From assembly GCF_003790525.1 (NCBI RefSeq), contig NZ_CP033635.1: 64,000 nucleotides of DNA, one strand, 5' to 3'. Position numbers and translations under genes: made by a program. This document shows positions 15,852 through 49,424 of this stretch, piece by piece; positions within the stretch are counted from its first letter, which is position 1; each line of letters opens with the position of its first letter. The notes below the pieces were generated by a model that saw only the letters and a list, made by a program, of their open reading frames with translations, did not search any database and was not told the origin of the DNA. The DNA comes from Escherichia coli (GTDB lineage: Bacteria; Pseudomonadota; Gammaproteobacteria; Enterobacterales; Enterobacteriaceae).

Positions 15852-16028
15852 GATAAACAGCCCTGCGTTATATGAGTTATCGGCATGATTATCCGTTTCT
15901 GCAGGGTTTTTAATCGGACGATTAGTGGGTGAAATGAGGGGTTATTTGAGGTTTACCGGTAAATTCCAGGCAGAAAAAACCCCGCCGGTGGCGGGGATGT
16001 ACGTTGCTGACAAATTACGCTTCATGTT

Positions 16029-47327: not shown

Positions 47328-47711
47328 TTATTCATAGCGTCTGCTACGTGCGGGACGAGGTCGGGTGTACCAGGCAATGCTGCCTAACAATGCCCCGACC
47401 AGAGCCATAAATAAAAATCCGACCAGTGCCCCTAACCACTTTCCCGCGGTAGAGCCTAAATCGCTTTCAAATCCCGACACCGGGGCATCGGGGATCCGGC
47501 TCATCACCCAGATGTAACGCGCCATTGCCCAGACGAAATAGCCACACCATGTATAGAAAGCCCACAAAGCCAGTTTGCCACCAGGGCTGCGAGAGAGTCT
47601 CTCTTCCATCTTTGTCGAACCGTATTCCATTTTGAGATAACCCGGAAAATTCAGACTTAGTACTATTATGTGATAAAAGTCACATTTTTCCACATTGGAT
47701 GAGCCAGTCAA
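47328..47711 (-). CDS. yedR: small inner membrane protein YedR (exact start uncertain)
   Basis: 127-aa ORF with two hydrophobic segments; true start may be a few codons internal. Confidence 0.7.
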   Translation of the reverse strand: MTGSSNVEKCDFYHIIVLSLNFPGYLKMEYGSTKMEERLSRSPGGKLALWAFYTWCGYFVWAMARYIWVMSRIPDAPVSGFESDLGSTAGKWLGALVGFLFMALVGALLGSIAWYTRPRPARSRRYE

Positions 47712-47859
47712 GACTCACTCATTTTTTGAACAAATAGATAATTTTTGCGCAACGGCAGTGAATACAGGAAAAATCGTTTTGAGCGATTTTATTTATCTTT
47801 GAGATCGGCTTTATTAATTCATTTAATCAATATATTAGCACTGAATACAATTATACCTT

Positions 47860-47948
47860 TTTATTTTTCTGTGTCATGATGCCTCCGTTATTAGCCTTTT
47901 ATCGTCTTGTTTATATTTTTTGGGCCGGCATGATGCCGGCTTTTTTTT
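47860..47948 (+). ncRNA. rseX: candidate small RNA in the yedR-yedS intergenic region, possibly RseX
   Basis: Strong intrinsic terminator gccggcatgatgccggc + TTTTTTTT at 47924-47948 on + strand with no upstream protein gene; -10-like ttatac about 70 nt upstream; the rseX assignment is from memory of its reported location. Confidence 0.45.
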
Positions 47949-48260
47949 ATGCCTTCATTAATGTGCGCGTGATCACACCAGCCGTTTGGCACAACAATCA
48001 TTGATACCCCCTATGCTTCCGCTCAACTCATAACATATTGATATACATTTATAATTTTCATGAATATTTATATTTAGAATTCATAATCCTGAATTATATT
48101 AAATAGATTAGAAACATTTTGAAATCTTTTAAATACATTTGTTACATGTAATCTTTAAAATAAAATGAACTTCATAGAATAGTATCCAAATGTGCTTTTT
48201 TTTTGGATAACGGCACTTATTGATATATTCATGAAGATTATAATCACAAGGGAATACATA

Positions 48261-49424
48261 ATGAAAAGAAAAGTTCTGGCAATGCTGGTCCCGGCGTTAT
48301 TAGTTGCTGGCGCAGCAAATGCGGCTGAAATTTATAATAAAAATGGCAATAAACTGGATCTGTACGGAAAAGTTGATGCTCGTCATACTTTTTCCGATAA
48401 CCCTGGCGATGACGGCGATGAAACTATCATCGAGTTAGGCTTCAAAGGTGAGACCCAAATTACAGATCAGTTAACTGGTTATGGTCAAGCACTGACCAAA
48501 ACAAAGGCTAGCGACACTGAAGGTTCTGATAATACTTATGTCAAACTTGCTTTTGCAGGTCTGAAGTTCGGCGAGATGGGCTCCTTTGACTATGGTCGTA
48601 ACTATGGTGTGATTTACGACGTTGAAGCCTGGACAGATATGCTTCCTGTATTCGGCGGCGACTCCTATACCTGGACTGATAACTTCATGGCAGGCCGTGC
48701 AAATGGGGTAGCTACTTACCGCAATAGTGATTTCTTCGGTCTGGTGGAAGGTCTGAACTTTGCATTGCAGTATCAAGGTAACAACGAAGGCAGCAATGCA
48801 GGAGAAGATCAAGAAGGTACTAAAAATGGTCACGAAGACGTTCGCTTCCAGAACGGTGATGGTTTTGGTCTTTCCACTTCATATGACTTTGACTTCGGTT
48901 TGAGCTTAGGTGCCGCTTACTCAAACTCTGACCGTACCAATTCTCAAGTAGCTCTTGGCGGGTATCACTACAATGAATACAGCAAATTTGCTGGTGGTGA
49001 TACAGCTGAAGCATGGACATTTGGTGCAAAATACGACGCCAACAATGTTTATCTTGCAATGATGTATGCTGAAACCCGCAATATGACACCATATGGTAAT
49101 GTGGGTATCGCAAATAAAACCCAGAACTTTGAAGCTGTAGCACAGTATCAGTTCGATTTTGGTCTGCGCCCATCTCTTGCATATGTTTATTCAAAAGGCA
49201 AAGACCTCGGCGGTAACGACTATAACAACAATGGTCATCAAGAGTATGTTGATCAGGATCTGGTCAACTATGTTGAAATTGGAGCGACCTACTATTTCAA
49301 TAAGAACTTCTCAACATATGTTGACTATAAAATAAACTTGTTGGATAAAGATGACGATTTCTATGACAACAATGGCATCGCAACAGATGACGTTGTTGGT
49401 GTGGGCTTAGTCTACCAGTTCTAA
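48261..49424 (+). CDS. yedS: OmpC/OmpF-family general porin, intact reading frame
   Basis: ORF 48192..49424; ATG at 48261 gives 387 aa with signal peptide [21 protein letters not shown], porin beta-barrel ending in C-terminal ...VGLVYQF. Confidence 0.85.

Follow-up and report, generated by a model that had tools for sequence, protein, structure and literature searches.

What does a strong transcription terminator do in the region between drpB (yedR) and yedS of this E. coli chromosome, with no protein-coding gene in front of it? A sequence-only reading of the window (the whole 64-kb stretch of DNA analyzed here) had described the hairpin as an orphan terminator that might end a small RNA. The locus is bounded and marked by three features:

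47328 to 47630, minus strand: drpB (yedR), the divergent upstream neighbor, 100 aa, with the start codon given by PMC7648144
47922 to 47948, plus strand: Rho-independent terminator, assigned below to rseX (stem 47924-47930/47934-47940, with G-U pairs from 47922; loop UGA; U8 at 47941-47948)
48261 to 49424, plus strand: intact yedS-type porin gene, 387 aa, the downstream neighbor on the same strand, with the PGAP name "porin OmpC"

The intergenic region had been taken as 47712 to 48260. Since the true start of drpB is the ATG at 47630 (PMC7648144), we corrected these limits to 47631 to 48260. The established drpB promoter lies between 47693 and 47630 (PMC7648144), and our consensus scan picked out TGGAAA-16-CATAAT, reading from 47692 to 47665 on the minus strand, inside that published stretch.

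Direct reading of the letters confirmed the hairpin. Positions 47924 to 47948 of the plus strand carry GCCGGCATGATGCCGGC and then eight T residues, which form a perfect 7-bp GC-rich stem, GCCGGCA-TGA-TGCCGGC, at 47924-47940 with T8 directly after it at 47941-47948, and an inverted-repeat search returned arms that were 100% complementary. A terminator scan also picked up the site, with the stem growing to 9 pairs through two G-U pairs from 47922, and the stem was present in both the MFE and the centroid predicted structures. We defined a strict motif, requiring a perfect stem that was 7 bp or longer and had 5 or more G/C, a loop of 3 to 8, and T at 7 or more of the following 8 positions, and found it at three sites on the two strands of the 64-kb window: here, at the dsrA terminator near 39432-39461 on the minus strand, and at 15996-15972 on the minus strand. 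The motif did not occur in 40 composition-preserving block shuffles, and therefore the hairpin is real and far beyond chance. The DsrA sRNA gene (39437-39522, minus strand) is itself a full-length Rfam match at 105.2 bits that ends in the strict motif, and the third site, at 15972-15996 on the minus strand, reads CCCCGCC-ACC-GGCGGGG followed by T6CT.

We searched the whole window against Rfam 15 and obtained a match to RF01401, the rseX Hfq-binding RNA, at 47858-47947 on the plus strand. The match scored 96.7 bits (gathering score, 50), spanned model positions 1 to 94 of 94, and had an E value of 4.9e-12 for the 64-kb search. A permissive Rfam scan of the intergenic region reproduced this match; the sub-threshold RyhB, Esr41, and mmgR matches that it also produced overlap the same terminator and were taken as chance. 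In the RefSeq annotation of K-12 MG1655, the ncRNA gene rseX (b4603) is at 2033649-2033739, flanked by drpB (b1963) and the yedS pseudogene (b4496). When the two intergenic regions were aligned, K-12 rseX fell on window positions 47858-47948 without indels, with 89 of 91 nucleotides identical. The two substitutions are at 47866 (T in the window versus A in K-12; nt 9 of the RNA) and 47883 (C versus T; nt 26), leaving nt 27-91 identical. As judged from the K-12 annotation, the alignment, and the flanking proteins, the gene is a positional orthologue: it lies between drpB and yedS, is divergent from drpB, and is co-directional with yedS. The window and K-12 share the drpB-rseX-yedS order, the RNA length of 91 nt, the strand relations, and the terminator; they differ at nt 9 (U in the window, A in K-12) and nt 26 (C in the window, U in K-12), and in yedS, which is intact in the window and a pseudogene in K-12.

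47858 to 47948, plus strand: rseX, the gene for the 91-nt Hfq-dependent sRNA RseX (Rfam RF01401; positional orthologue of K-12 b4603)

We conclude, with a probability of about 97%, that this interval is rseX, encoding a 91-nt Hfq-dependent trans-acting sRNA with a probable sigma70-type promoter of its own and a hairpin-plus-U8 end, for which we predict the function described in the literature. The sequence-only reading had suggested a location for RseX in the yedR-yedS interval, and the annotation, the alignment, and the Rfam match all place it there. No coding gene lies upstream, but the terminator is not an orphan: the hairpin is the terminator of rseX. The identity, orthology, and anatomy of the gene, along with the conservation and in silico pairing described below, are established by this analysis. 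The gene was already known, as an Rfam family and as a K-12 annotation, and is not a discovery; with rseX on record since 2002-2006, the discovery value here is small.

The absence of a protein-coding gene upstream, as originally claimed, held up, as drpB is divergent and no plus-strand ORF is conserved. If the region coded for a small protein, the candidate would be an ATG-initiated 42-codon ORF that is present on the plus strand at 47876-48004 and runs from inside rseX through the terminator. However, no Shine-Dalgarno sequence precedes this ORF, and its frame is not conserved: in E. whittamii, both Escherichia clades, and E. coli E69, stop codons interrupt it some 18 codons in, and C. amalonaticus has lost the ATG. 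We rejected the 42-aa ORF, whose chance of being a gene is negligible. The elements that we assign to the RNA gene instead are as follows:

47822 to 47828, plus strand: weak inferred -35 candidates, TTTAAT (18-nt spacer) and TTAATC (17-nt spacer), each 3/6
47846 to 47851, plus strand: rseX -10 hexamer TACAAT (5/6), read from the sequence, stopping 7 nt short of the 5' end of the RNA at 47858
47871 to 47895, plus strand: 5' hairpin of the Rfam rseX consensus, a weak stem of A-U and G-U pairs whose 6-nt loop, at 47881-47886, is variable (Rfam structure line and MFE fold)
47876 to 47900, plus strand: predicted target-pairing region, RseX nt 19-43, containing CCUCC (local duplex search)
47909 to 47921, plus strand: U-rich stretch directly 5' of the terminator, likely part of the Hfq-binding module as judged from general knowledge of Hfq-dependent sRNAs

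The -10-like element that had been noticed about 70 nt upstream of the hairpin is this TACAAT, which stands about 70 to 75 nt before the terminator and is mostly kept among the Escherichia homologues. Our consensus scan did not include the rseX promoter because, with a well-placed -10, its -35 is poor and matches at only 3 of 6 positions. In K-12, rseX has a sigma70 promoter, and its primary 5' end was mapped by 5' RACE (PMC8313858). In the predicted fold of RseX, a long single-stranded stretch rich in U separates the weak 5' hairpin from the terminator. This whole-RNA fold was no more stable than those of shuffled sequences (z = -1.46), as expected because the sRNA is mostly unstructured and U-rich. 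The 7-bp stem and U8 are what a rho-independent terminator of an RNA of about 91 nt with a U tail calls for, and they predict its 3' end; together with the U-rich tract, they also lead us to predict Hfq binding here.

The consensus scan returned a different promoter at the start of rseX, facing the other way:

47850 to 47877, minus strand: candidate antisense sigma70 promoter ATGACA-16-TATAAT, 11/12, overlapping the rseX -10 and the first 20 nt of the RNA

No other site in the 64-kb window matched at 11/12 or better, and shuffled sequences give an expectation of 0.87 per window and 0.06 per intergenic region. Because 0.87 matches are expected per window, we treat it as a candidate only. Its -10 crosses the rseX -10, its -35 corresponds to the invariant RseX core TGTCAT read on the opposite strand, and it is distinct from the published drpB promoter. 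The antisense promoter may be real and may outcompete the weak rseX promoter for RNA polymerase; functional interference of this kind is improbable. If it did occur, it would, with H-NS, add to the long-standing non-detection of native RseX, and the element might be a second, distal drpB promoter that makes expression of the sRNA and of the cell-division gene mutually exclusive.

We determined the distribution of rseX with a 131-nt query around the gene: of 5426 complete E. coli genomes, 4879 carry it, every one but a single genome at 90 to 100% identity, and 547 lack it. In one of the latter (NZ_CP062851.1), an IS1 element follows immediately after the equivalent of position 47810, and rseX, yedS, hchA, and hprSR are deleted. 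The IS1-linked loss and the absence from about 10% of genomes fit the published view of rseX as a variable sRNA that has been lost repeatedly (PMC3318445). Scanning one genome per species with an exact pattern, we obtained homologues from E. albertii, E. whittamii, two Escherichia clades, one further E. coli, and C. amalonaticus. These all scored above the Rfam threshold (70.9 to 95.2 bits), and each has a yedS-type porin gene in the same orientation on one side and, on contigs that extend far enough, a drpB homologue on the other. The scan of species representatives returned no Salmonella rseX; the literature reports an RF01401 match there, and our pattern was probably too strict.

The RNA core, CUGUGUCAU..AU and CGUUAUUAGCCUUUUAUCGUC, was invariant in eight homologues, and the 6-nt hairpin loop and the flanks varied. 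The terminator stem was nearly invariant as well, with one compensatory change of G-C to A-U in C. amalonaticus. When we scored covariation in the 5' hairpin and terminator of the eight homologues, there was almost no variation, with one compensatory pair and 57 of 500 shuffles as good. Covariation is therefore uninformative either way, because the homologues are too similar and the 5' stem is nearly invariant.

The practical value of the assignment lies in annotation, since PGAP/RefSeq omits rseX in most E. coli genomes, including a strain identical to the window here. The 549-bp region first considered is 100% identical to that of the urinary isolate E. coli EC1515, in which PGAP annotates nothing between drpB and the porin gene. 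This is an annotation gap and no evidence of absence. RefSeq/PGAP gives no feature in this intergenic region in the listed E. coli genomes (e.g., NZ_CP021844.1), K-12 excepted, and rseX goes unmentioned in a published study that uses the yedS-yedR intergenic region as a host-source biomarker.

In K-12, H-NS silences expression of the gene. RseX is undetectable in wild-type K-12, and species of about 91 nt and about 75 nt appear on Northern blots only in hns mutants (PMC8313858). The K-12 locus lies in silenced protein-occupancy domains in seven of eight conditions. We mapped the published H-NS site onto the window by alignment, and K-12 and the window have no indels across this stretch:

47816 to 47826, no strand assigned: H-NS occupancy motif at rseX positions -42 to -32, carried over from K-12 (PMC8313858)

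Positions 47600-48300 have 22 to 37% G+C, compared to about 52 to 58% in the genes to the left, and this low G+C content around rseX is consistent with H-NS binding, which we predict here. The gene could then be rseX by descent and yet a cryptic relic, co-inherited with the yedS locus, silent under H-NS, and with no physiological role in this strain. The detection of native RseX only without H-NS, the occupied and silenced domains, the roughly 10% of complete genomes that lack the gene, as by the IS1-associated deletion, and its scoring as a variable sRNA with repeated secondary loss (PMC3318445) would all agree with such a relic. However, a relic would not readily account for retention in 90% of genomes at the identities given above or for a core that stays invariant out to Citrobacter amalonaticus as the flanks and hairpin loop vary; moreover, TraDIS suggested a requirement for rseX in S. 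Typhimurium, and RseX has defined targets once expressed. We consider the complete lack of a role doubtful. The chief caveat to the assignment nevertheless concerns physiology and not identity, since H-NS silencing and the loss in about 10% of genomes mean that the gene may be largely cryptic.

The sequence-only reading had also called RseX a regulator of OmpA and OmpC. That RseX represses ompA and ompC in an Hfq-dependent way was published by Douchin et al. in 2006, as cited in PMC8313858 and PMC7648144, and further repression of fimB and ihfB has been described (PMC8313858). We used a windowed local duplex search of RseX against the K-12 ompA and ompC translation-initiation regions, with 100 shuffled RseX sequences, as unrestricted RNAduplex gave meaningless whole-molecule duplexes. 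In silico and with the K-12 targets, RseX nt 19-40 paired with ompA -23 to -4 at -19.3 kcal/mol and nt 24-43 paired with ompC -28 to -9 at -19.0 kcal/mol, each over the Shine-Dalgarno sequence and each with 2 of 100 shuffles as good. These predicted duplexes of about -19 kcal/mol are consistent with the published regulation. The C at 47883 (RseX nt 26) converts CUUCC to CCUCC in the hairpin loop, and the best local duplexes with C26 as in the window versus U26 as in K-12 were -19.3 versus -18.0 kcal/mol for ompA and -19.0 versus -17.1 kcal/mol for ompC. Thus, the C26 allele is predicted to improve pairing with the two Shine-Dalgarno regions modestly. It is common, with 697 genomes at least 99% identical over the 131-nt query.

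We propose that the core at about nt 19-43, which contains CCUCC and is predicted to be single-stranded or weakly structured, would pair with the ompA and ompC Shine-Dalgarno regions, and that this pairing would block translation and lower the levels of the two mRNAs. RseX came to light because it suppresses rseP essentiality when present in multicopy, and its overexpression would ease envelope stress in this way. The Hfq-binding 3' module would consist of the U-rich tract, the terminator stem-loop that follows it, and the U tail, and the AT-rich site would be silenced by H-NS/StpA so that the RNA is normally barely made. We infer that Hfq dependence, the targets, H-NS silencing, and the terminator-loop function described next hold in this strain too.

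In K-12, the 3'-terminal 40 nt of RseX (RseX+52, nt 52-91) were shown in 2024 to repress fepA 23-fold (PMC11979758). Nucleotides of the terminator loop, Hfq, and RNase E are all needed for this repression, which apparently involves no base pairing (PMC11979758), so the K-12 terminator loop would have a separate, non-pairing role. The RseX+52 segment corresponds to window positions 47909-47948 and is identical to that of K-12. Since the terminator loop drives fepA repression in K-12, the hairpin that first drew attention to this locus has a documented role beyond termination. The 3' terminator module of RseX resembles SdsR+44 and ArrS in that it represses fepA by itself through loop nucleotides, Hfq, and RNase E (PMC11979758). 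In contrast, RseX differs in its response to the fepA StemComp mutant, and no pairing was detected in the published work (PMC11979758). The terminator loop of C. amalonaticus reads AUUUU versus AUGAU.

Among known regulators of outer membrane proteins, the sigmaE-dependent sRNAs MicA and RybB are like RseX in being Hfq dependent, in pairing with major omp mRNAs at or close to their translation-initiation regions, and in relieving envelope stress. Overexpression of these sRNAs compensates for lost sigmaE activity (PMC8313858). Unlike MicA and RybB, RseX has no sigmaE promoter but a sigma70-like -10 and H-NS silencing, and it belongs to a separate Rfam family with no sequence relatedness to them.

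The position of rseX beside a porin gene raises the question of whether it acts on yedS. MicF, whose gene adjoins ompC, likewise comes from an sRNA gene beside a porin gene and regulates other porins in trans, and micC adjoins ompN. However, micF and micC are divergent from the adjoining porin genes, whereas rseX is in tandem, upstream of yedS. The windowed duplex search found no pairing of RseX with the yedS start region beyond chance (86 of 100 shuffles were as good), and we rejected control of the neighbor by pairing.

The tandem arrangement also allows a reading in which yedS has a leader or attenuator made up of the promoter, hairpin, and U8, with read-through controlling the porin gene in cis and no independent trans-acting RNA. 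In keeping with this, yedS follows rseX on the same strand after 312 nt, their tandem order is kept to Citrobacter, and yedS is intact in the window. However, the rseX terminator is strong, with seven perfect pairs and U8, and the 312-nt spacer has promoter-like sites of its own at 48073-48100 and 48139-48166. In addition, plasmid-borne RseX acts in trans on ompA, ompC, fimB, ihfB, and fepA, the predicted fold showed no alternative antiterminator structure, and the shuffles in the duplex search with the yedS translation-initiation region again speak against it. The strong terminator, the promoter-like sites in the spacer, and the action of RseX in trans make the leader or attenuator reading unlikely, with only a very slight chance of being correct. 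A trans-acting RseX next to, but separate from, yedS is the reading that we retain.

The strain context is mildly interesting in that RseX, with a C26 allele of slightly better predicted pairing, stands upstream of an intact and highly divergent yedS allele. The YedS protein is about 70% identical to the K-12 pseudogene product and to other Escherichia YedS proteins. Nucleotide identity to K-12 was 96 to 100% over the intergenic region and the signal peptide, fell to 54 to 83% over most of 48300-49400, and was back at 96 to 100% from about 49470, except for one bin at 90%. These sharp breakpoints in the sequence point to an allelic replacement or a hypervariable mature porin in yedS. A perfect 8-bp inverted repeat, TATCCAAA/TTTGGATA, is also present at 48183-48209, with an 11-nt T-rich spacer that is one T shorter in K-12. 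The repeat is located 52 nt upstream of the yedS ATG and may serve to bind a protein or form a hairpin in the 5' UTR.
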